DNA from: Candidatus Gottesmanbacteria bacterium
GTDB taxonomy: Bacteria > Patescibacteriota > Microgenomatia > UBA10105 > UBA927
Direction of reading: 5' to 3'
Length of the DNA: 64,000 bases
Assembly: GCA_030679255.1 (NCBI GenBank)
Contig: JAUXTO010000025.1
Span: 8,719 to 72,718 of the forward strand
The position numbers and the translations under genes are program-made. The notes below the pieces were generated by a model. It did not search any database. It was given only the letters and a program-made list of their open reading frames with translations, and was not told the DNA's origin. The number at the start of each line of letters is the position of its first letter. Position 1 is the first letter of the stretch. Shown in pieces: positions 10,428-64,000 of this stretch.

Positions 10428-11627
10428 ATGGACCTACTAAAAAATATAGACGCCCTTCTCATTACTAACCCGACGAATATCCGGTATCTCACTGGATTCG
10501 TCGGTGCGGCGCCGGAGGAGAGGGAAGCATACTGCTTGCTTACCAACTCTCAAACGTATCTCTTCATTAATGCGCTTTATACTGAATACGCAAATACACT
10601 TGTTTCACCATCTAAGCAAGGCAGTAATAATCCAATAATCCAATTCTCAAATAATCCAATAAAAATAGTCAAAATTTCCCGCGGGGAACCTTTTGCAAAA
10701 AAACTTGGTGATGTTCTGAAAAGGTCTCACCTTGCCAAACCGCAAGGTGAGACCTTAAAAGGAATTCGCCTCGGATTTGAAGAGAGCAACTTGACCGTCG
10801 CAGAATTCGAAAAATTAAAAAAAGAATTGCCCGGCATCACCCTTGTCCCAACACAAAACAGAATTGAAGAACTCCGGATGATCAAGCGCGATGATGAAAT
10901 CGAAAACATCCGACAGGCTGCAAAGATTACGGATCAGTGTTTTACCTATCTTACCACCATACTAAAACCTCGTGTTACTGAACTTGAAATCGCCTGGAAA
11001 ATCGAGTCCTTCATTCGCTCCCGCGGCGCGGGTCTTGCCTTCTCCCCCATCGTCGCGTTTGGCTCAAACACCTCGCAACCGCACTATTCACCAAAATCTA
11101 GCCTTAAAAGGTCTCACCTTTTAAGGCTAAAAAATCAAGATATTGTGCTACTGGATTTCGGCGCGAAGATTAACGGCTACTGCAGCGACATGACCCGCAT
11201 GGTGTTTATTGGCAAACCCGAGGCTGAATGGGTGAACGCTTACGAAACGGTTTCGAGAGCGCAAACCATGGCTCTCGAGTATCTAGCCTCAAGGCCTGGC
11301 CTTGAGGCTACGGGTGATAAAGTCGATCAGATCGCACGGGATATCATTGAAAATGCAGGGTTCCCTACCTATCCCCACTCTCTGGGTCACGGGGTGGGAT
11401 TGGATATTCATGAAGCACCACGATTGAGAACCAATCCTTCAATAAATTCAGAACAACCAGTTACATCCCGCGCTTCGCAAAGACTCATGCCCGGCATGGT
11501 CGTCACGGTTGAGCCAGGAATATATATCGAAGGACAGTATGGCGTACGCCTCGAGGATTTGATACTCTTGAAAGAAGACGGGATTGAATTACTATCAAAA
11601 TCAAATAAACATATCACTATACTTTAG
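10428..11627 (+). CDS. M24 family Xaa-Pro aminopeptidase carrying three in-frame palindromic-element insertions
   Basis: M24 motifs (DFGAKINGYCSDMTR, HSLGHGVGLDIHE, VEPGIY). Palindromic elements are embedded at 10717-10762, 11098-11130 and 11283-11310; one of them encodes KSSLKRSHLLRLKNQ. Confidence 0.8.
   Translation: MDLLKNIDALLITNPTNIRYLTGFVGAAPEEREAYCLLTNSQTYLFINALYTEYANTLVSPSKQGSNNPIIQFSNNPIKIVKISRGEPFAKKLGDVLKRSHLAKPQGETLKGIRLGFEESNLTVAEFEKLKKELPGITLVPTQNRIEELRMIKRDDEIENIRQAAKITDQCFTYLTTILKPRVTELEIAWKIESFIRSRGAGLAFSPIVAFGSNTSQPHYSPKSSLKRSHLLRLKNQDIVLLDFGAKINGYCSDMTRMVFIGKPEAEWVNAYETVSRAQTMALEYLASRPGLEATGDKVDQIARDIIENAGFPTYPHSLGHGVGLDIHEAPRLRTNPSINSEQPVTSRASQRLMPGMVVTVEPGIYIEGQYGVRLEDLILLKEDGIELLSKSNKHITIL
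10717..10762. repeat. REP-like family 1 derivative (extended palindrome around ggtctcacc / ggtgagacc)
   Basis: tgaaaaggtctcaccttg-ccaaaccg-caaggtgagaccttaaaagg. It lies inside pepP and is in frame. Confidence 0.7.
11098..11130. repeat. REP-like family 1 element
   Basis: ctagccttaaaagg-tctca-ccttttaaggctaa. In frame in pepP (SLKRSHLLRL). Confidence 0.8.
11283..11310. repeat. Family 1b palindrome (same outer arms, centre aaggcctggcctt)
   Basis: ctagcctcaaggcc-t-ggccttgaggcta. The same 13-bp core appears twice at 2587-2644. Confidence 0.7.
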
Positions 11628-19651: not shown

Positions 19652-20815
19652 TCAATTGCCAACTTTAAACTCCACCACATCCCCATCTTGCATCACATAT
19701 TCTTTTCCTTCACTGCGCACTTTTCCTGCCTCTCTCGCCCCTTTCCAACCTTTAAGCGCCACAAGGTCCGTATACGCGACGACATCGGCCTTGATAAACT
19801 TCTTTTCAAAATCCGTATGGATGACGCCGGCCGCCTGAGGAGCCTTCATCCCACGGGTAATCGTCCACGCGCGTGCCTCGATAGGTCCACAAGTTAAAAA
19901 AGAGATGAGACCAAGCATTTCGTATGCTTTGGCGATCAACCGGTCTAAGCCGGACGCTTCCAAACCCAATTCTTTGAGATACGCCTTTTGCTCATCTTCA
20001 GAGAGACTGGCCAACTCCGTCTCTACCTTGGCACTGATGCCTAGTATGTCATTCCGGCCATCCATGTCATTCCGGGCTTGACCCGGAATCCAGTCTTTTT
20101 TTTCGCTGGATCCCGGCCCGCTTCGACGTAGCGAGGCGAGCGCGGAGGCCGGGACGACAGAATCCGTTGTCAATTGTTGTTCGCTGACATTCGCCACGTA
20201 AAGAACGGGCTTCATAGTCAAAAGCTGCAAATCCCGAACGGCTTTCTGTTCTTCCGGTGGGAATTCGAGTGATGATGCTGGTTTACCGTTATTTAAGATC
20301 TGAAAAAGCCGTTCTAATAGTTCTGGTGGCAGTGCGCTACCATCCTTTTGCCGTTTCCCATTATCTTTTTGCCGTACTATCGTTTGCAAATCAGCCAATA
20401 TGAGTTCGGTCTCAATAATCCCGCGGTCCCGCTCAGGGTTGACGTCCCCGGCTACGTGGACGACGGAAGGATCATCAAAATAACGGATGACGTTGACGAC
20501 CAAGTCAACCTCACGGATATGAGAGAGAAATTTGTTCCCCAACCCTTCACCTTCTGAAGCACCTTTGACGAGTCCGGCAATATCCACAAATTGTACGGTC
20601 GCGTGGGTGAGCGGTGGCTTCACATGCTCTTCTCTCTCCACGAGCGTTGCTAGTGTTTCTAACCTTTTGTCCGGCACGGGAACCACACCGATATTTGGTT
20701 CTATCGTGGTAAACGGGTAATTTGCCGCCTCCGCGACCTGCTTTTTGAGGAGCGCATTAAACAGCGTACTTTTTCCAGCATTAGGAAGACCAACGATCCC
20801 TACTTTTAAATTCAT
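19652..20815 (-). CDS. ychF: Ribosome-binding ATPase YchF carrying an in-frame multi-hairpin element insertion
   Basis: [22 protein letters not shown]... with a TGS-like C-terminus. The insertion at 20048-20157 encodes ...SSEKKDWIPGQARNDMDG.... Confidence 0.85.
   Translation of the reverse strand: MNLKVGIVGLPNAGKSTLFNALLKKQVAEAANYPFTTIEPNIGVVPVPDKRLETLATLVEREEHVKPPLTHATVQFVDIAGLVKGASEGEGLGNKFLSHIREVDLVVNVIRYFDDPSVVHVAGDVNPERDRGIIETELILADLQTIVRQKDNGKRQKDGSALPPELLERLFQILNNGKPASSLEFPPEEQKAVRDLQLLTMKPVLYVANVSEQQLTTDSVVPASALASLRRSGPGSSEKKDWIPGQARNDMDGRNDILGISAKVETELASLSEDEQKAYLKELGLEASGLDRLIAKAYEMLGLISFLTCGPIEARAWTITRGMKAPQAAGVIHTDFEKKFIKADVVAYTDLVALKGWKGAREAGKVRSEGKEYVMQDGDVVEFKVGN
20048..20157. 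repeat. Family 2 multi-hairpin element (TIR gtcatYcc...gggaYgac), in frame in ychF
   Basis: gtcattccgggcttgacccggaatccag...ggatcccggcc...ggccgggacgac. It carries a partial internal duplication. Confidence 0.75.
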
Positions 20816-20896
20816 GTCAAAATTGTATCAGGAAACAGACTAATGGCATAGACTGATGTTGACATTGATCGAATTCTCAGTGTTTAATAGTAGCTA

Positions 20897-22680: not shown

Positions 22681-22830
22681 TTCATCCGTCATTGGTACCC
22701 ACTCCTATATTTGGCACAATGGTCGTGAACAGGTAATTAGCCGCCTCGGCGACCTGCTTCTTGAGCAGCGCATTAAACAGTGTACTCTTTCCTGCGTTTG
22801 GTAGCCCGACGATCCCTATGCGTAAGTTCA
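22681..22830 (-). pseudogene. Duplicated 5' fragment of ychF (about 41 conserved codons followed by a stop)
   Basis: The minus-strand translation [43 protein letters not shown]... matches the intact ychF N-terminus at 20815. The DNA is diverged (roughly 75% identity by eye). Confidence 0.7.
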
Positions 22831-22907
22831 TATCGCGTGTATGTCGCGTGTATTGACTATCTTTTAAATTTTTGCTACTATGTTGTTATCACGATGACTG
22901 GACTAGC

Positions 22908-33841: not shown

Positions 33842-33857
33842 AGTATTATTCGTTCAT

Positions 33858-33933
33858 GTCACTCCCGCGAAGGCGGGAGTCCAGAATTTTCTTGAATTGT
33901 TTAACACTGGATCCCCGCGTACGCGGGGATGAC
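33858..33933. repeat. Family 2 multi-hairpin element, intergenic copy in opposite orientation
   Basis: gtcactcccgcgaaggcgggagtccagaattttcttgaat...tggatccccgcgtacgcggggatgac. Confidence 0.75.
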
Positions 33934-33945
33934 AACACTAAATCT

Positions 33946-34248
33946 TCAAAATCCAAGTTGTGCCTTCGCTTCCTCCGTCATACGGTCCATACTCCACGGC
34001 GGCTCAAACGTAAGTTCTACTTCCACACGTTTGACGCCTTTCAATTTCCCAACCTCCTCGCGGATCGGGCCGGCAATCAAGTCAAAGAGCGGGCATCCGA
34101 TGGTCGTGAGCGTCATGAGAATCCGGATCGTGCCCACCTTTTTGTCTATCCCAATCTCATAAATGAGCCCCAGGTCCCAAAGCGACACCCCTATTTCTGG
34201 GTCCGGAATGGTCTTCAAAATTTTTTCTACTTGTTTTTGGGTAATCAT
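33946..34248 (-). CDS. DUF59/MIP18-family Fe-S cluster assembly protein (SufT-like)
   Basis: IPDPEIGVSLWDLGLIYEI...TLTTIGCPLFDLI...PPWS. Confidence 0.8.
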   Translation of the reverse strand: MITQKQVEKILKTIPDPEIGVSLWDLGLIYEIGIDKKVGTIRILMTLTTIGCPLFDLIAGPIREEVGKLKGVKRVEVELTFEPPWSMDRMTEEAKAQLGF

Positions 34249-49118: not shown

Positions 49119-50270
49119 TTATGAAAGGAATTGTGTGACAATTGCAAGTACTTCTTGTTTTTGTACTTCTGTAACCACCACTTCCACGATTCCCTCCTCG
49201 GGCCCGCCTGCAACGCTATGCGTACCCGTCTGCAGCGATGCAGCAGCTTCGGGCAGGGCATTGCGGGCAGGCTGACCATAATAAAGAATACTTCCCAATG
49301 GAGCGTATTGGATGACCGGTAGGACTAAGAGGTCTTCTTCGCCGTTCACGATGATGGCGTGATGCGTATCTCCTGGTCTTACTTTTCTGGCAAGCGCTGC
49401 TTGTATTGCCACCACGGCATCACGACTAATAAACCCCGGTCCACTATGCAAAAATTTAGCCTTAAAAGGTGAGACCTTTTGAGGCTGAAGTCTGTTTACT
49501 ATTTCCGGGAATGGTTTCCGGCCTACTTGGCCATCAATGACGGCCAAGCACGGCATGACGCCGAGATCCAACACGGTCTTCGTCGATAAATCCCCGACCG
49601 TTATGACGAAATCGTGTTCGTGTGACCGTATCGAGACGTCTATCGCTTTTCCACGGAGAATCTTCCCCATCGGCTTGCCGAGCGCGGCGCGCAGCCTCTC
49701 CGGCATGATGAGTCTCCCGTCCCCGTCAATCTCTCCCTTTCGCAGCCGTGTCGAAGAAATCGGCTTTCCATCCTCGGCCGGTACGATCGGCACTTCGATG
49801 AGCGCGAGCGGTGACAGGGCCAGGCCCTGTCTGAGACCATTGATACGCTCTCCGGTCGAACGGTTCTCATATGTGACAATGAGCGCAGTGAGATCCCTCA
49901 TGCTCGCCGCAGGTTCGTGAGGATCAGAGATCGGGATAATGGTCGTCCGATTGAAATATCGTCGCTTGTGCAACCATGCTATGAGATAGCATTTCCTTTC
50001 TTTATATGTGCTTATTTTTTTTTGAATTTGCACATTGGGATTTGTTTGGTCATTGGGATTTGGAAATTGGGATTTATACTTTACAACAAACTCGTCTGTT
50101 GTCAGCCCGATAGTCACCCGCTCGCCTACCCGAAATGCCTCAGATAGAATTGATCGGTGCCCCGCGTGGAGCCCGTCAAACGTCCCGGCGACGAAAATGT
50201 GGTGATATAAATAATCTTTTAGAAGTTTATTATTAAGGATAGTCACAGAGGAATAATACAATATGATCAC
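49119..50270 (-). CDS. Fusion: archaeal-type phosphopantetheine adenylyltransferase-like (HxGH) N-domain plus a DUF359/dephospho-CoA kinase-like C-domain
   Basis: The N-domain has FVAGTFDGLHAGHRSIL...IGLTTDEFV. The C-domain has VITVGDLSTKTVLDLGVMPCLAVIDGQVGRKPF. It hosts a 10-bp repeat block at 50032-50075 and a REP-like element at 49447-49478. Confidence 0.5.
   Translation of the reverse strand: MIILYYSSVTILNNKLLKDYLYHHIFVAGTFDGLHAGHRSILSEAFRVGERVTIGLTTDEFVVKYKSQFPNPNDQTNPNVQIQKKISTYKERKCYLIAWLHKRRYFNRTTIIPISDPHEPAASMRDLTALIVTYENRSTGERINGLRQGLALSPLALIEVPIVPAEDGKPISSTRLRKGEIDGDGRLIMPERLRAALGKPMGKILRGKAIDVSIRSHEHDFVITVGDLSTKTVLDLGVMPCLAVIDGQVGRKPFPEIVNRLQPQKVSPFKAKFLHSGPGFISRDAVVAIQAALARKVRPGDTHHAIIVNGEEDLLVLPVIQYAPLGSILYYGQPARNALPEAAASLQTGTHSVAGGPEEGIVEVVVTEVQKQEVLAIVTQFLS
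49447..49478. repeat. REP-like family 1 element
   Basis: ttagccttaaaaggtgagaccttttgaggct. In frame in the PPAT/DPCK-like gene (QPQKVSPFKA). Confidence 0.8.
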
Positions 50271-52473: not shown

Positions 52474-53635
52474 CCCCTTTTGGAATCCCCTGCCCGAGTA
52501 CGAGAAAATTGCGACCGAAGTGCATACGGCAATCGCCCGCGTCCTCTCCTCGGGCACGCTCATCCTGGGGCCGGAAGTCGCAGCGTTTGAAACATCCTTT
52601 GCGCAATACATTGGCTGCCGGTATGGTATTGGGGTGGGTAATGGGACGGATGCCATCATTCTCGCCCTCAAAGCGCTCGGAGTGGGTCAGGATGACGAAG
52701 TGATTACCGCCGCCAATACAGCTATCCCCACCGTCGCGGCAATCATGGCGGTTGGTGCAGTACCCAAGCTCGTTGACGTACTCCCTGATTCCCTGCTTAT
52801 GGATCCCGCCAAACTTCAAGGCGCCATTACAAAGCGTACCCGCGCAATAATCCCCGTCCATCTCTACGGACAATCGTGCGATATGGACACGATTATGAAG
52901 ATCGCAACATCCAAAAAGGTATTCGTCATCGAAGACTGCGCGCAGGCGACGGGGGCCGAGTATAAGTCAAAAGTCTCCGCCAAAGGCGGACCAGCCTATG
53001 GCCGGAAAAGTCGAAAGTCAAAAGTTGGTTCGATGGGGAGTATCGCAACATTTTCGTTTTATCCGACCAAAATCATCGGCTGCTACGGCGATGGGGGGAT
53101 GATTACGACCAATAATCCCGCTCTTGCCAAGCGGGTACGAAGTTTACGCATGTATGGCACCGAGGGAACGTACAACGCTATAATCGAAGGAGGAATTAAT
53201 TCACGACTCGATGAACTCCAGGCTGCCATCCTATCTGTCAAATTGAAAAACATCAAACGCTGGATCAAGGAGCGGCAACGTCTCGCCCATCGCTACAATC
53301 AGGGTCTCAAGAGTACACCACTTATTCTTCCGTCTCAGCCTCAAAAGGTCTCACCTTTTGAGGCTAATTCCCATGTTTTTCACCTCTATATCATCCGACA
53401 CACGAAACGCATAGAAATTCAAAAATATTTAAGAATGCACGGTATCGGCACGGCTATCCACTACCCGGTCCCCATCCACCTTATGCCCGCGTACAGCAAA
53501 TTAGGATACGAAAAAGGAGATTTTCCCGTCGCCGAAGGGGCGTGTCATTCTGTGCTTTCGCTTCCGCTCTATCCGGGGCTGACTGACGACGATCAGGATC
53601 GTATCATCAATGCGCTTCGCGCGTACTTCAAATAA
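52463..53635 (+). CDS. DegT/DnrJ/EryC1/StrS family sugar aminotransferase with an in-frame REP-like insertion
   Basis: IPFWNP...GNGTDAI...SFYPTKIIGCYGDGGMITT. The element at 53336-53367 encodes SQPQKVSPFEAN. Confidence 0.85.
   Translation: MKSIPFWNPLPEYEKIATEVHTAIARVLSSGTLILGPEVAAFETSFAQYIGCRYGIGVGNGTDAIILALKALGVGQDDEVITAANTAIPTVAAIMAVGAVPKLVDVLPDSLLMDPAKLQGAITKRTRAIIPVHLYGQSCDMDTIMKIATSKKVFVIEDCAQATGAEYKSKVSAKGGPAYGRKSRKSKVGSMGSIATFSFYPTKIIGCYGDGGMITTNNPALAKRVRSLRMYGTEGTYNAIIEGGINSRLDELQAAILSVKLKNIKRWIKERQRLAHRYNQGLKSTPLILPSQPQKVSPFEANSHVFHLYIIRHTKRIEIQKYLRMHGIGTAIHYPVPIHLMPAYSKLGYEKGDFPVAEGACHSVLSLPLYPGLTDDDQDRIINALRAYFK
53336..53367. repeat. REP-like family 1 element
   Basis: cagcctcaaaaggtctcaccttttgaggctaa is a perfect palindrome. 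In frame in the DegT gene. Confidence 0.8.
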
Positions 53636-55069: not shown

Positions 55070-55105
55070 CATAAATCTAGCCTTAAAAGGTCTCACCTTT
55101 TGAGG

Positions 55106-55843
55106 CTAATCTTCATCAATTTCTGCTTTTGCAATATACCGAATACTTTCAACTTCAAAATCATAATCCTGTATCTCGACAAACTCTTTATATGACTGTA
55201 ATCCCGTTTTCGCTTTAGAGAAATAAGAAAGAATTGTCTTTGGCTTCACCCACTCTTGATGAATCTCTCCCAGGTAATTGGGATACGATGACGGTTGTAA
55301 CCGCAATATTTGAGATCGCTTTTTTGGATCTAGCCTTAAAAGGTGAGACCTTTTGAGGCTAAACGGATTACGGTGGATATATCGGGATACATGAAGAAGC
55401 TGCGCGTCATTAGTAATCAAGACTGCCTTATACGTTCCTTGAAAGACAGACCCTACTCGCTTGTGCCGGCTGTTTTCATACATCGTAAACCGAGTCATCA
55501 CAGATTGTACAAATTCACTCATGTCTGACTCCCCTTTTTGCTGGAGAAGAAAATGGAAATGATTGGGCATCAGGCAATAGGCCAAAAGATCAATCTTACC
55601 AGTAAAATTCTTTAGTCGAAGCTCTCGTGCTGCTACCCCACGTTCTTTATAGGAAAGGGATTCCTCTGACGCCATCTCCCGAAGTTTTTTTTCATCTTTT
55701 GGACGTAATGCGGTTGCAATATAAGAAAGGAATACTCGATAATCCTGATCATCAATGAATATATCCGCTTTATTCACTCCTCGATTATAGACATGATACA
55801 CCCCATCAGAGACGTACGATTTGATGATATTTTTGGCAGGCAT
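55106..55843 (-). CDS. REP-associated tyrosine transposase (RAYT; IS200/IS605-like HuH Y1 transposase), with a REP copy inserted near the catalytic Tyr
   Basis: YHVYNRGVNKADIF, HuH MPNHFHFLL, and RYIHRNP (the Y motif). SLKRSHLLRL is inserted immediately after NPF, via the element at 55330-55362. Confidence 0.8.
   Translation of the reverse strand: MPAKNIIKSYVSDGVYHVYNRGVNKADIFIDDQDYRVFLSYIATALRPKDEKKLREMASEESLSYKERGVAARELRLKNFTGKIDLLAYCLMPNHFHFLLQQKGESDMSEFVQSVMTRFTMYENSRHKRVGSVFQGTYKAVLITNDAQLLHVSRYIHRNPFSLKRSHLLRLDPKKRSQILRLQPSSYPNYLGEIHQEWVKPKTILSYFSKAKTGLQSYKEFVEIQDYDFEVESIRYIAKAEIDED
55330..55362. repeat. REP-like family 1 element inside the RAYT gene
   Basis: ctagccttaaaaggtgagaccttttgaggctaa. 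Confidence 0.8.
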
Positions 55844-55906
55844 GCCATCAGTATGCGCGAAGTGATAAAAAAATACAATAGCCTTAAAAGGTGAGACCTT
55901 TTGAGG

Positions 55907-57031
55907 CTAAGTCTTCAAAACCTTCTGATAGACTTTTTCGTAACCCTCGACCATTTTCTCTACGGTAAAGTTTTCCTCGACATGCCTCCGGCAAGCGGCG
56001 CGGTCGATTTCTCCGATGCGTTTGACGGCTTCGACCAGCCCCTCTACCCCACGTTTTTTGATGACCCACTTCCCGTCTTTATTGGTAGTATTGGTAGTAT
56101 TTGTCTGATTTGTAGTATTGGTAGTATTATCATTTGGTTCTACGATAAACCCCGTCACTCCGTCCTTGACGATTTCAGAAACTGACCCCCGGTTGTAGGC
56201 GATGACCGGCGTCCCGCACGCCATGGCCTCAATCATCACGAGCCCAAACGGCTCTTCCCAGTGGATGGGGAATAGGAACGCTTTCGCATTACCTAAAAAA
56301 TCATACTTCAACGGACCAATCATTCGATCTAATAGACGAATCATCGCGCCATCAACTTCAGCGTTTATGCGTTTCAGATATGCTTCCTGGCCCTTTTCCT
56401 CAAAACCAACAAGCGTCAGCACGTCTCCAGTTTTTTTTGCCGTCATGATTGCATCAATTGCCCCTTTATTTTCCGAAAAACGTCCCATCCAGGCTACATA
56501 CGATGGTTTCTGTGGATGGAAAACAAATGGAACGTTTAAAGCGTCAATACCGTTGTAAACTACGCTCGAGAAATGGATGTAGGGCAACGCTCGTTTGGCG
56601 CCTTCGGATAATGCTATAAAAAATTCATGAGGAAATCGTTCGAATACTTTCTGTTCCCGCATCGCAAAATTAGCGCCGTGTGTGGTTGAAACGACGGGTG
56701 GACGAACCGCATGGATATAGGGTAATAATACGTGCTCTATATGACTATGTACGATATCAAACTGACCGAGCTCCGGAACTATTTTTTCTGCATACGCATG
56801 CTGAAGCGCAACACTTTCACGATCAAATAGTGATCGACCGGATTCTTTGAGCGATGGGCCACTAAAGCGCAGCAATACACGCGGAAACACTGACTTATCC
56901 GGAGCAAACACCGTAACCGTGTGGCCTCTCGCCTTGAGCCCCAAGGTGACATCCCGCACCACGGCTTTTATACCGATTGCCTTCTCAGAATCAAACGCAG
57001 ACCAATTGGGTAAAATTTGCGCAACGTTCAT
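55907..57031 (-). CDS. GT4 family glycosyltransferase
   Basis: EEPFGLVMIEAMACGTPVIAYNRGSVSEIV. An internal TNTTNQTNTTNTTN stretch comes from ttggtagtat repeats at 56081-56129. Confidence 0.85.
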   Translation of the reverse strand: MNVAQILPNWSAFDSEKAIGIKAVVRDVTLGLKARGHTVTVFAPDKSVFPRVLLRFSGPSLKESGRSLFDRESVALQHAYAEKIVPELGQFDIVHSHIEHVLLPYIHAVRPPVVSTTHGANFAMREQKVFERFPHEFFIALSEGAKRALPYIHFSSVVYNGIDALNVPFVFHPQKPSYVAWMGRFSENKGAIDAIMTAKKTGDVLTLVGFEEKGQEAYLKRINAEVDGAMIRLLDRMIGPLKYDFLGNAKAFLFPIHWEEPFGLVMIEAMACGTPVIAYNRGSVSEIVKDGVTGFIVEPNDNTTNTTNQTNTTNTTNKDGKWVIKKRGVEGLVEAVKRIGEIDRAACRRHVEENFTVEKMVEGYEKVYQKVLKT

Positions 57032-62449: not shown

Positions 62450-63430
62450 TTAGCTTCGCCAAGTTTGACTTGACGAAGCTAGCTTTTTCCCGAGCACCAG
62501 CCAAAGGAATTGGAGCAACCGTAGTTGTCTCCCAAACCGCCAAGGTTCAATGACCAGCCGCCAGAGCCACTCGAGGCCAAGCGATCGGAAAAAATGCGGT
62601 GCGCGGGGCACTCGTCCGGCAATGATGTCAAAACTGCCGCCGACGGACATGAAAACGATGCTTTTCCTGTCATCCCGGGCTTGACCCGGGATCCATTCTT
62701 TTTTCTCTGGATTCCGGCTCAGAGGCCGGAATGACAAAATATGGGCAAGCTGCTCTATAAAAAATTCCTGCTTCGGTGCCCCCAACCCCACGAAGACGAT
62801 GCATATCCTTGTTTTTCTTATCTTTTCAATAATATCTTTCGTGTATTGGTAGTATTTGAGTATTGTCCCGCTGCTGTTTCCGATATTTATTGGATTACAG
62901 CAGCGTGGATCCCGCTTCGCGGGAGTAGCATTTGACATTGGTAGTATTGGCATTTCCTCCGGCTCCTCCGCCCACCCCACCAACCCCGGATACTTTATTT
63001 TCAGTTGCCCGAGCGCCTCCTGCGCCACTCCATCTCTCCCGCCGATGAGCGCGACCGGCCAACCCTTTGCCGCGGCCATCGCCACCAGATCTTCCATAAA
63101 CTCCACACCGGGGATTCTTTGCAAACCTATGTCCTGAGTCTTATGTCCTACGTCCTTCCCAAGAAAACGCAGCGCGGCGACAAGACCTATCCCGTCCGGG
63201 ATTGCCACATCAGCACCATTAAGGATCTCAGCAAAATGTTTATCGGTTTGCGCGGCGATGATCTGTTCCGGATTCGGTGTGACAATAACGAGGGGTTTCC
63301 GGTTTTTATTGGATAATTGGATAATTGGATAATTGGATAATTCTAAGTACTTCCGTACATGTTCTACTATTTCATCCTTTGGACTCGCCGTCACCGATAT
63401 TCCGAGTATTTTTGTTGATGCCAACTTCAT
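62450..63430 (-). CDS. WecB/TagA/CpsF (GT26) family glycosyltransferase with in-frame repeat insertions
   Basis: LVIVTPNPEQII...DVAIPDGIGLVAALRFLG...GLGAPKQE. The element at 62669-62735 encodes EKKEWIPGQARDD. An 8-bp repeat x4 sits at 63309-63342. Confidence 0.7.
   Translation of the reverse strand: MKLASTKILGISVTASPKDEIVEHVRKYLELSNYPIIQLSNKNRKPLVIVTPNPEQIIAAQTDKHFAEILNGADVAIPDGIGLVAALRFLGKDVGHKTQDIGLQRIPGVEFMEDLVAMAAAKGWPVALIGGRDGVAQEALGQLKIKYPGLVGWAEEPEEMPILPMSNATPAKRDPRCCNPINIGNSSGTILKYYQYTKDIIEKIRKTRICIVFVGLGAPKQEFFIEQLAHILSFRPLSRNPEKKEWIPGQARDDRKSIVFMSVGGSFDIIAGRVPRAPHFFRSLGLEWLWRLVIEPWRFGRQLRLLQFLWLVLGKKLASSSQTWRS
62669..62735. repeat. Family 2 multi-hairpin element, in frame in the WecB/TagA gene
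   Basis: gtcatcccgggcttgacccgggatccattcttttttctctggattccggctcagaggccggaatgac. Confidence 0.8.
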
Positions 63431-63491: not shown

Positions 63492-64000
63492 TTATCGTTT
63501 ACTGATGCTCCTCTTATAAAGTTCAATATTCTCAAGAGCGACCCCGGTGCCGCGTACGACACAAAGAAGTGCGTCTTCGGCAACATGACAGGGCACCCCC
63601 GTCATTTGAGTAAGAAGTTTATCCATATTGCGCAGTGTAGACGTTCCTCCGGCCATAACGATACCTTTATCGATGATGTCTGCCGCAAGCTCCGGCGGTG
63701 TTTCCTCAAGCGCGGATTTGACGGCCCCAACGATGAGCAGAAGTACCGGCATGATGGCCTCCGTGACCTCGCCGCGTGTGAGCTCAATCATCCGCGGCAT
63801 ACCGGTGTAGAGGTCCCGCCCCCGGACTTCAATGCTATCCTGATTTGTCATCCCAGGCTTGACCTGGGATCCATCTTTCTGGACCCCAGCCTTCGCTGGG
63901 GTGACATCGGGATTGCCCATCGCATCCCCAATCGTCACTTTGATCGTCTCACTCATCCGTTCGCCGATAATCAGATTAAATTTTTTCTTTACAAAACCGG
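63492..64000 (-). CDS. mreB: Rod shape-determining protein MreB, C-terminal part. Partial: the gene continues past the right edge of the window.
   Basis: EVRGRDLYTGMPRMIELT...IVMAGGTSTLRNMDKLLTQMTGVPCHVAEDALLCVVRGTG. The element at 63847-63905 inserts in-frame and encodes VTPAKAGVQKDGSQVKPGMT. Confidence 0.85.
   Translation of the reverse strand, partial: GFVKKKFNLIIGERMSETIKVTIGDAMGNPDVTPAKAGVQKDGSQVKPGMTNQDSIEVRGRDLYTGMPRMIELTRGEVTEAIMPVLLLIVGAVKSALEETPPELAADIIDKGIVMAGGTSTLRNMDKLLTQMTGVPCHVAEDALLCVVRGTGVALENIELYKRSISKR
63847..63905. repeat. Family 2 multi-hairpin element, in frame in mreB
   Basis: gtcatcccaggcttgacctgggatccatctttctggaccccagccttcgctggggtgac. Confidence 0.8.

Follow-up and report, generated by a model that had tools for sequence, protein, structure and literature searches.

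Repetitive extragenic palindromic (REP) sequences with a CGTC tag have been defined as units that carry the tag CGTC, often TGTC (variant CCTC), a stem of 8 to 9 bp starting with A-T, and a CCA tail, around a loop of 4 nt in family 1, 5 nt in families 2 to 4, and greater length in some members (Di Nocera, De Gregorio & Rocco 2013, BMC Genomics 14:522; PMC3733652). Head-to-head dimers of these units predominate, heterodimers are common, intragenic dimers encode 20 to 30 residues, and no dedicated transposase is known; the units were reported in five phyla, mostly in Alphaproteobacteria, and RPE-4 and RPE-6, two Rickettsia palindromic element (RPE) families of Rickettsia conorii, were equated with CGTC-4 and CGTC-1, respectively, as was Neisseria dRS3 with CGTC-1 (PMC3733652). 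We compared with this definition a family of palindromic elements in a 64-kb stretch of DNA (64,000 nt of contig JAUXTO010000025.1, hereafter the window) from Candidatus Gottesmanbacteria, a member of the candidate phyla radiation (CPR; Patescibacteria). Our reading, to which we assign a probability of roughly 0.8, is that the four elements of this family in the window are head-to-head heterodimers of CGTC-tagged REPs that selection has filtered to permissive loops.

Architecture of the four dimers and their likeness to CGTC-tagged REPs

The window contains four dimers of a palindromic unit of 27 to 29 nt (Table 1; spans include the tags), at about the places where an earlier note on this DNA had put them. 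Each copy consists of two different GC-rich hairpins, inverted to each other, around a spacer whose + strand is rich in T, as that note had also described. A unit is built from a TGTC tag, an 8-bp stem, a loop of 4 to 6 nt, the complementary stem, and a CCA tail; the tag and the tail are both present on all eight units, and the base following the tail is G or T. All four copies are bounded by TGTCAYYCC...GGRRTGACA with the tags on the outside, which is the head-to-head heterodimer arrangement. These ends had been taken for separate 8-bp inverted repeats; they are indeed inverted, but each is a tag plus the outer half of a hairpin stem. Seven of the units have perfect 8-bp stems (ATTCCGGG, ATCCCGGG, ATCCCAGG, ACTCCCGC, ATCCCCGC, ATTCCGGC, and ACCCCAGC) that start with AT or AC, and the eighth, at the 20159 end, deviates in having a 9-bp stem that starts with GT and a 28-nt structured loop. 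The C found at the second stem position in two of the eight units is a minor departure from the rule for CGTC REPs, which have complementary A-T at the first and second positions. The remaining loops are GAAG (in two units) and GTAC (4 nt), CTTGA (in three units; 5 nt), and CTCTGA (6 nt). While the outer five stem pairs are ATTCC-like, the inner stem positions vary among units, and the other arm always compensates.

The window was scanned for the structure [CT]GTC, an 8-bp stem without mismatch, a loop of 4 to 6 nt, and a CCA tail, and seven perfect units were recovered, compared to none in 200 first-order Markov simulations of the window. Single-strand folds of the copies had z-scores of -2.8 to -6.0 relative to shuffled sequences, and the predicted folds were either two local hairpins or one long hairpin. 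Across all loci, the tag was TGTC 253 times and CGTC 138 times, and when 410 units were anchored on the tag, outer stem, and tail only, the inner stem triplet was perfectly paired in 395 of them, with 12 triplet types represented, versus 146 paired when partners were shuffled.

Because the features of the elements match the published definition point by point, namely in tag, stem, loop, tail, the predominance of head-to-head dimers, the frequency of heterodimers, the coding length of intragenic dimers, and the lack of a flanking transposase, we identify them as CGTC REPs. They differ from the CGTC REPs of 2013 in their CPR host, in having some loops of 6 or 28 nt, and in their short spacers (6 to 26 nt); furthermore, copies in the CPR loci studied here are mostly intragenic, whereas REPs elsewhere are mostly intergenic. 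Like the window elements, Rickettsia RPEs are palindromic repeats that a reduced genome carries in frame within unrelated housekeeping genes, but elements of the RPE-1 type are approximately 100 to 150 bp long and unrelated in sequence, and the host here is not an alphaproteobacterial endosymbiont. The dRS3 unit of Neisseria (ATTCCC-N8-GGGAAT) has the same outer stem, ATTCC/GGAAT, as the window units; the Neisseria units are intergenic and lie in clustered arrays, whereas those of the window are isolated dimers, mostly in genes. Neisseria dRS3 units serve as target sites for phages or insertion sequences (ISs). Another likeness is to Rfam family RF02748, FtrB (Francisella small RNA B), the consensus of which has GUCAUUCCCGCGUAGGCGGGAAUC and GAUCCCCGUGUCAAGCACGAGGAU in the same two-unit layout. 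At gathering thresholds there were zero Rfam matches in the window, and at E-value thresholds FtrB was the sole weak match, at 63828-63928 (mreB) and 62645-62773 (tagA) on the - strand, with 27.5 and 23.9 bits versus a gathering threshold of 66. The FtrB family looks like a transcribed CGTC REP heterodimer, but FtrB is a small RNA and the window copies that it matched lie in coding sequence.

Table 1. Coordinates of the REP dimers, their host genes, and family 1 features in the window
Feature	Positions	Strand	Details
ychF host gene	19652-20815	-	387 aa; stop-free through the element
Whole copy in ychF	20047-20159	+	remnant plus complete dimer
Remnant of older REP unit in ychF	20047-20064	+	TGTCATTCCGGCCATCCA, 18 nt; encodes MDGRND on the - strand
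Complete head-to-head dimer in ychF	20065-20159	+	encodes approximately residues 220-250 of YchF
Left unit of ychF dimer	20065-20092	+	TGTC-ATTCCGGG-CTTGA-CCCGGAAT-CCA
Right unit of ychF dimer			9-bp stem GGCCGGGAC/GTCCCGGCC with 28-nt structured loop; spacer before it T-rich
Intergenic REP dimer	33857-33934	+	units ACTCCCGC-GAAG-GCGGGAGT and ATCCCCGC-GTAC-GCGGGGAT; spacer 26 nt
tagA host gene (WecG/TagA/CpsF glycosyltransferase)	62450-63430	-	326 aa; stop-free through the element
REP heterodimer in tagA	62668-62736	+	69 nt = 23 codons; units ATCCCGGG-CTTGA-CCCGGGAT and ATTCCGGC-CTCTGA-GCCGGAAT; encodes LSFRPLSRNPEKKEWIPGQARDD
mreB host gene, C-terminal part	63492-64000	-	runs past the window end; stop-free through the element
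REP heterodimer in mreB	63846-63906	+	61 nt; units ATCCCAGG-CTTGA-CCTGGGAT and ACCCCAGC-GAAG-GCTGGGGT; spacer 6 nt; encodes VTPAKAGVQKDGSQVKPGMT
RAYT-like Y1 transposase gene	55106-55843	-	
Family 1 palindromes flanking the Y1 gene	55078-55108, 55879-55909		TAGCCTTAAAAGGT-NNN-ACCTTTTGAGGCTA
Further family 1 palindromes	11099-11129, 49456-49488, 53335-53367, 55331-55361		TAGCCTTAAAAGGT-CTC/GAG-ACCTTTTGAGGCTA

In-frame copies in ychF, tagA, and mreB and their occurrence elsewhere

Three of the four copies are in frame and stop-free within ychF, tagA, and mreB, and the peptides quoted for them previously were correct. On the + strand the four copies all point the same way, and each of the three host genes is encoded on the - strand; the mreB copy, which had been described as lying in the other orientation, is instead read in a different frame from that in tagA. 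As only 1 to 4 of the 6 reading frames of any copy are free of stops, the in-frame, stop-free copies represent a selected subset of insertions. The window is approximately 90% coding by greedy tiling of open reading frames (ORFs), and its YchF matches a Candidatus Gottesmanbacteria protein at 100%. The single intergenic copy, also recognized as such before, is located between two - strand genes, 11 nt past the stop codon of a FeS_assembly_P gene (33946-34248, -) and 15 nt before the next - strand ORF. It is not followed by a T run, which rules it out as an intrinsic terminator, and neither terminator nor promoter signals were found.

The sites occupied in the three proteins are hypervariable in length: across alignments of 120 orthologs each, they range from approximately 7 to 45 residues in YchF, 0 to 45 in TagA, and 2 to 60 in MreB. 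The YchF insert lies between the NVSE and SAK strands of the G domain, where there are 42 residues compared to 20 in Haemophilus YchF. TagA has approximately 22 extra residues after the GAPKQE helix relative to a solved structure, and the MreB insert consists of 23 residues, versus 3 in Geobacillus MreB (7zpt), between 7zpt residues 222 and 226, in subdomain IIB. In AlphaFold models, YchF residues 222-254 have a predicted local distance difference test score (pLDDT) below 50 and the TagA insert is a coil (pLDDT 64 to 79) between a helix at 220-233 and a strand at 259-262. A second low-confidence insert is present in the window TagA at approximately residues 156-190.

The copy in ychF, which had been treated as a single unit, does contain a dimer but is a composite, made up of an 18-nt remnant followed by a complete dimer. 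The remnant is homologous, apart from an internal deletion, to the unit TGGATTCCGGCTCGGRGGCCGGAATGACA found at the same place in two orthologs, L018 and L019. Of these, L018 is the closest (75% identity) and has one unit at the site, and L019 has a complete dimer; the window gene carries a complete but different dimer plus the deleted remnant of the unit common to both. The ychF site has therefore been hit or remodeled more than once. An ORF of 49 aa at 22682-22831 (-), 2 kb from the intact gene, is a truncated duplicate of the YchF N terminus with approximately 79% DNA identity to 20678-20818.

The tagA insert was found at the identical codon in at least 13 orthologs of 45 to 58% identity, and peptides related to the inserts were present at the YchF and MreB sites of orthologs. 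The earlier note had proposed that insert peptides in orthologs would count against a repeat; with the peptides found there, the repeat nature of the inserts still stands, and their presence in orthologs shows that the insertions date far back, have recurred, or both. The tagA heterodimer is shared by six lineages (the window and L141 to L145) with 59% amino acid identity in the regions flanking the insert, and its codon position, orientation, and length are identical in all of them. These six were picked by their recognizable insert peptide and are thus a biased sample; in many other TagA orthologs the site lacks the element or contains decayed or different sequence. Within the six, the stems are invariant apart from a compensatory change from GGG/CCC to GGA/TCC in L143, and the loops and the 12-nt spacer vary. 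Their spacers are all 12 nt long and A-rich, whereas those of the same heterodimer in other genes differ widely in length and sequence, and this uniformity favors common descent of the six tagA copies.

A closer relative, L196 (71% identity), also carries a copy at this position of mreB, read in the frame used in the window, but its stems contain mismatches and its tag is gone. This degenerate copy demonstrates that the elements can decay. Five relatives that share the mreB-tagA synteny have other low-complexity inserts at mreB, without such a dimer. A split of mreB at the site in relatives was ruled out for one case (P0326), in which a 113-aa fragment was traced to a scaffold-gap artifact: this "MreB" database entry derives from a run of N with duplicated flanks at approximately 2890-2985 of L195, just downstream of the variable site.

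The units are not confined to these genes or to CPR. The 27-mer GTCATYCCNGGCTTGACCNGGRATCCA was present in 17 IMG/VR loci, with some contigs containing 6 to 10 copies in the same orientation, and in at least 120 loci of one-genome-per-species contigs, many of which were heterodimers of the same build. Among the matches listed were Alpha-, Beta-, and Gammaproteobacteria (including Coxiellaceae, Legionellales, and Rickettsiales), Binatia, Nitrospirota, Chloroflexota, Armatimonadota, Bacteroidota, Calditrichota, Zixibacteria, Cloacimonadota, Fibrobacter, Campylobacteraceae, Eubacteriales, and two CPR groups. The head-to-head layout of two different units was likewise seen in L019, L141, L142, and many genome loci. 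Metagenome copies of the exact tagA-type heterodimer, chosen by exact stem match, numbered 51 and were spread over 49 loci. Of these, 41 had at least 25 open codons on each side, and the proteins concerned fall into at least 22 unrelated families, with the element read in either orientation and in several frames; hosts confirmed by Pfam were GlmS, RadA, TopA, LeuRS, ArgRS (two copies), Tgt, PheT, PheS, a GHMP kinase, and POR (2-oxoacid oxidoreductase). In 39 of the 51 the A-rich strand was the sense strand, which suggests that a loop rich in Lys and Glu is better tolerated than one rich in Phe. Third-position conservation in GlmS and RadA was not used as independent evidence, since the copies had been selected by exact stem match, and a crude test for spanning open frames in high-GC genomes was judged unreliable and was also not used.

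Further CGTC-type units were noted in related CPR contigs at L141 4035-4104, L018 9772-9798, and L019 5559-5625, the contexts in these contigs being a dimer in a Peptidase_M16 gene, a single unit in a Peptidase_M24 gene, and a dimer between ssb and rpsR. Three viral-labeled loci (L003, L008, and L017; IMG/VR contigs 3300025714_000452 and 3300003667_000196) carry 6 to 10 intergenic copies, some of them in tandem, with 21 to 22 nt between units, and in an Armatimonadota genome five copies are repeated in tandem every 47 nt (L066, 5493-5707).

Mobilization and the weighing of explanations

We looked for signs of how the elements might move. No target-site duplication was found in 38 distinct insertions; the flanks had a T at position -1 in 35 and an A at position +1 in 36 of the 38, but both of these bases belong to the tags. 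We saw no autonomous parent element with matching ends in either the window or the 196 loci examined. The window does contain a gene for a Y1 transposase that resembles REP-associated tyrosine transposases (RAYTs), with a Pfam Y1_Tnp match (E = 1.5e-8) and a best NCBIfam match to REP-associated tyrosine transposase that, at 50.6, is below the cut-off of 80. This gene was missed by tblastn with E. coli RAYT and IS200 TnpA probes and was found only with proteins from L141. Copies of the window's other palindrome, family 1, lie on either side of it; family 1 is separate from the REP dimers, as had been claimed, and the gene and its flanking palindromes are a REPtron for family 1. Three Y1 paralogs occupy a 20-kb stretch next to tagA in L141, and a palindrome of its own flanks each of them. 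None of the Y1 genes examined (window and L141) was flanked by CGTC-type units, and no systematic association was found, with almost no Y1 genes present in the approximately 1.5 Mb, made up of parts of genomes from many phyla, that surrounded CGTC units.

Taken together, these results lead us to propose that the window elements are non-autonomous hairpin repeats that spread, or once spread, in trans through an enzyme that would not be encoded beside them. In a gene-dense genome such as this one, copies would persist mainly where selection allows, and the permissive places would be those in which a copy is in frame and stop-free, has its A-rich strand as the sense strand so that the spacer encodes Lys and Glu, and falls in a surface loop that already varies in length. 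Occupied sites are reused or remodeled, as in ychF; some copies persist over deep divergence with intact stems, as in tagA, and others decay, as in the mreB relative. Our confidence in any particular mobilizing enzyme is far lower than that in the class and the filtering. Several points weigh against this proposal. Mobility is unsupported by presence/absence polymorphism between near-identical genomes (none was found), by target-site duplication, or by an enzyme, and the identity of RPE-4, RPE-6, and dRS3 with the window family rests on the statement in PMC3733652, not on alignment. In the six tagA lineages, third-position identity at codons for invariant amino acids was 96% in the insert versus 44% in the flanks, whose synonymous sites are saturated, and invariant stems beside saturated flanks are not predicted for purely selfish or neutral DNA. 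Finally, a neighbor-joining tree of 120 TagA proteins neither clusters the carriers nor clearly scatters them and is thus compatible with one gain as well as with several. The earlier description of the elements as "tolerated" holds insofar as they are in frame in conserved genes, but may be too weak for the tagA copy.

The main rival to filtered CGTC REPs is that selection maintains the dimers within the genes as functional cis-acting DNA or RNA structures, for example as a binding or cleavage site for a conserved host factor or as an mRNA structure that modulates translation or stability. Their broad distribution would then be due to that function and not to selfish transposition. This would account for the codon, orientation, and heterodimer common to the six tagA lineages, for their invariant stems with one compensatory change, and for the difference in third-position identity; orthologous tagA copies also resemble each other more closely than do the paralogs of the window genome, a pattern that speaks against within-genome homogenization, and the same 27-mer occurs in many phyla and the same heterodimer in the FtrB consensus. 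However, this evidence is affected by ascertainment, with orthologs found through the insert peptide and metagenome copies through exact stem matches, and the idea sits poorly with the many TagA orthologs in which the element is missing or decayed, the mismatched stems and lost tag of the L196 mreB copy, unrelated host genes and frames, and the lack of terminator or promoter signals. We regard it as a tentative alternative, and we would put forward with similar reserve the more specific suggestion that the CGTC heterodimer is a sequence-specific, structure-dependent element under nucleotide-level purifying selection in essential CPR genes and recognized by a very widely conserved factor. Such a factor could be the missing mobilizing enzyme or a host protein that uses the hairpins and, if it existed, would explain why one 27-mer is shared by groups as far apart as Proteobacteria, Chloroflexi, CPR, and phage-like contigs. 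The dimers might alternatively be REPINs (REP doublets forming hairpins) moved in trans by the resident Y1 transposase. The two inverted hairpins, able to fold as one long hairpin, have the architecture of a REPIN, the genome also encodes a RAYT-like protein, and up to three paralogs lie in 20 kb beside tagA in relatives. We consider this unlikely, though, given that the tag is TGTC or CGTC instead of GTAG, that every Y1 gene examined was flanked by its own, different palindrome, that such genes are nearly absent around CGTC units, and that the NCBIfam score did not reach its cut-off.

Three other explanations fared less well. The elements had been termed MITE-like, and a classical IS-derived miniature inverted-repeat transposable element (MITE), moved by cut-and-paste by a DDE transposase that recognizes terminal inverted repeats, would be small, present in many copies, and inverted at its ends, with the T at -1 and A at +1 readable as insertion at a TA dinucleotide. 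The term is apt in that this is a multi-copy palindromic repeat, but its class is that of CGTC-REP dimers: the "termini" are the tags of self-contained units that are also found singly and in tandem, there is no target-site duplication, and no parent IS or longer element with the same ends was found in any locus seen, which makes a MITE very improbable. Selection for a conserved functional peptide motif, with the inserts as protein modules, was suggested by the recurrence of SFRPPSRNPEKKxWIPGQARDD in TagA orthologs, GlmS, PheS, ArgRS, and the GHMP kinase; yet at least five combinations of frame and orientation yield unrelated peptides (VIPASEPES.., CHSGLRAGIQ.., CHPGLDPGS.., VIPGLTRDP..), the inserts are disordered or coil in AlphaFold models, and the conservation of synonymous positions is unexpected for selection on the protein only, so that the probability of this explanation is slighter still. 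Misjoining of repeats into genes during assembly of a metagenome-assembled genome deserves mention because repeats disturb assemblies and the MreB fragment described above came from a gap with duplicated flanks, but we give it almost no credence, as the same in-frame insert at the same codon was found in independent NCBI, ENA, and JGI assemblies with frames intact on both sides.

If the elements are CGTC REPs, their kind is already known, as CGTC REPs and as the in-frame palindromic elements in housekeeping genes that are the classic RPE observation in Rickettsia, and no new mechanism is involved. What is new is the CPR host, the high intragenic share in CPR loci, the range of essential genes hit, the deep orthologous conservation at tagA, and the taxonomic spread of a single unit far beyond the five phyla of 2013; no paper linking REPs with Patescibacteria was found in the literature searched, which is absence of evidence only. 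Rickettsia-style in-frame palindromic repeats in housekeeping proteins are thereby extended to CPR, and in the CPR loci studied here they are apparently common, with copies in YchF, TagA, MreB, GlmS, RadA, TopA, several aminoacyl-tRNA synthetases, and Tgt. For annotation, they account for numerous unusual low-complexity loops of CPR proteins, for peptides labeled "hypothetical" in them (such as VIPAKAGIQ, WIPGQARDD, and KPGMT), and for length differences between orthologs. CPR genomes also offer many orthologous, datable copies for asking whether CGTC REPs still move, what moves them, and whether their hairpins are selected.

Other inserts in the variable loops

Many orthologs of YchF, TagA, and MreB contain peptides from the same or related repeats, which start with V-I-P or S-F-R and end with N-D or D-D, the starts and ends corresponding to GTCATTCC and GGAATGAC. 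The predicted insert peptides include DWIPGQAR and DGSQVKPGMTNQDSIEVR, and a literature search for the insert peptides gave no match. The variable loops also bear peptides from other short repeats, in the window at 63303-63342 and at approximately 62860-62970 (in tagA). Such peptides in CPR loops include SNYPIIQLSN (from ATTGGATA tandems), NPTNLTNPTNE, LTNLQSDKLT, SLRGASLRATRQS...IASPSERSRND, and VILSKSEGS...PQND, and they were seen in the YchF, TagA, and MreB orthologs P0015, P0020, P0040, P0003, P0010, P0125, and P0131.

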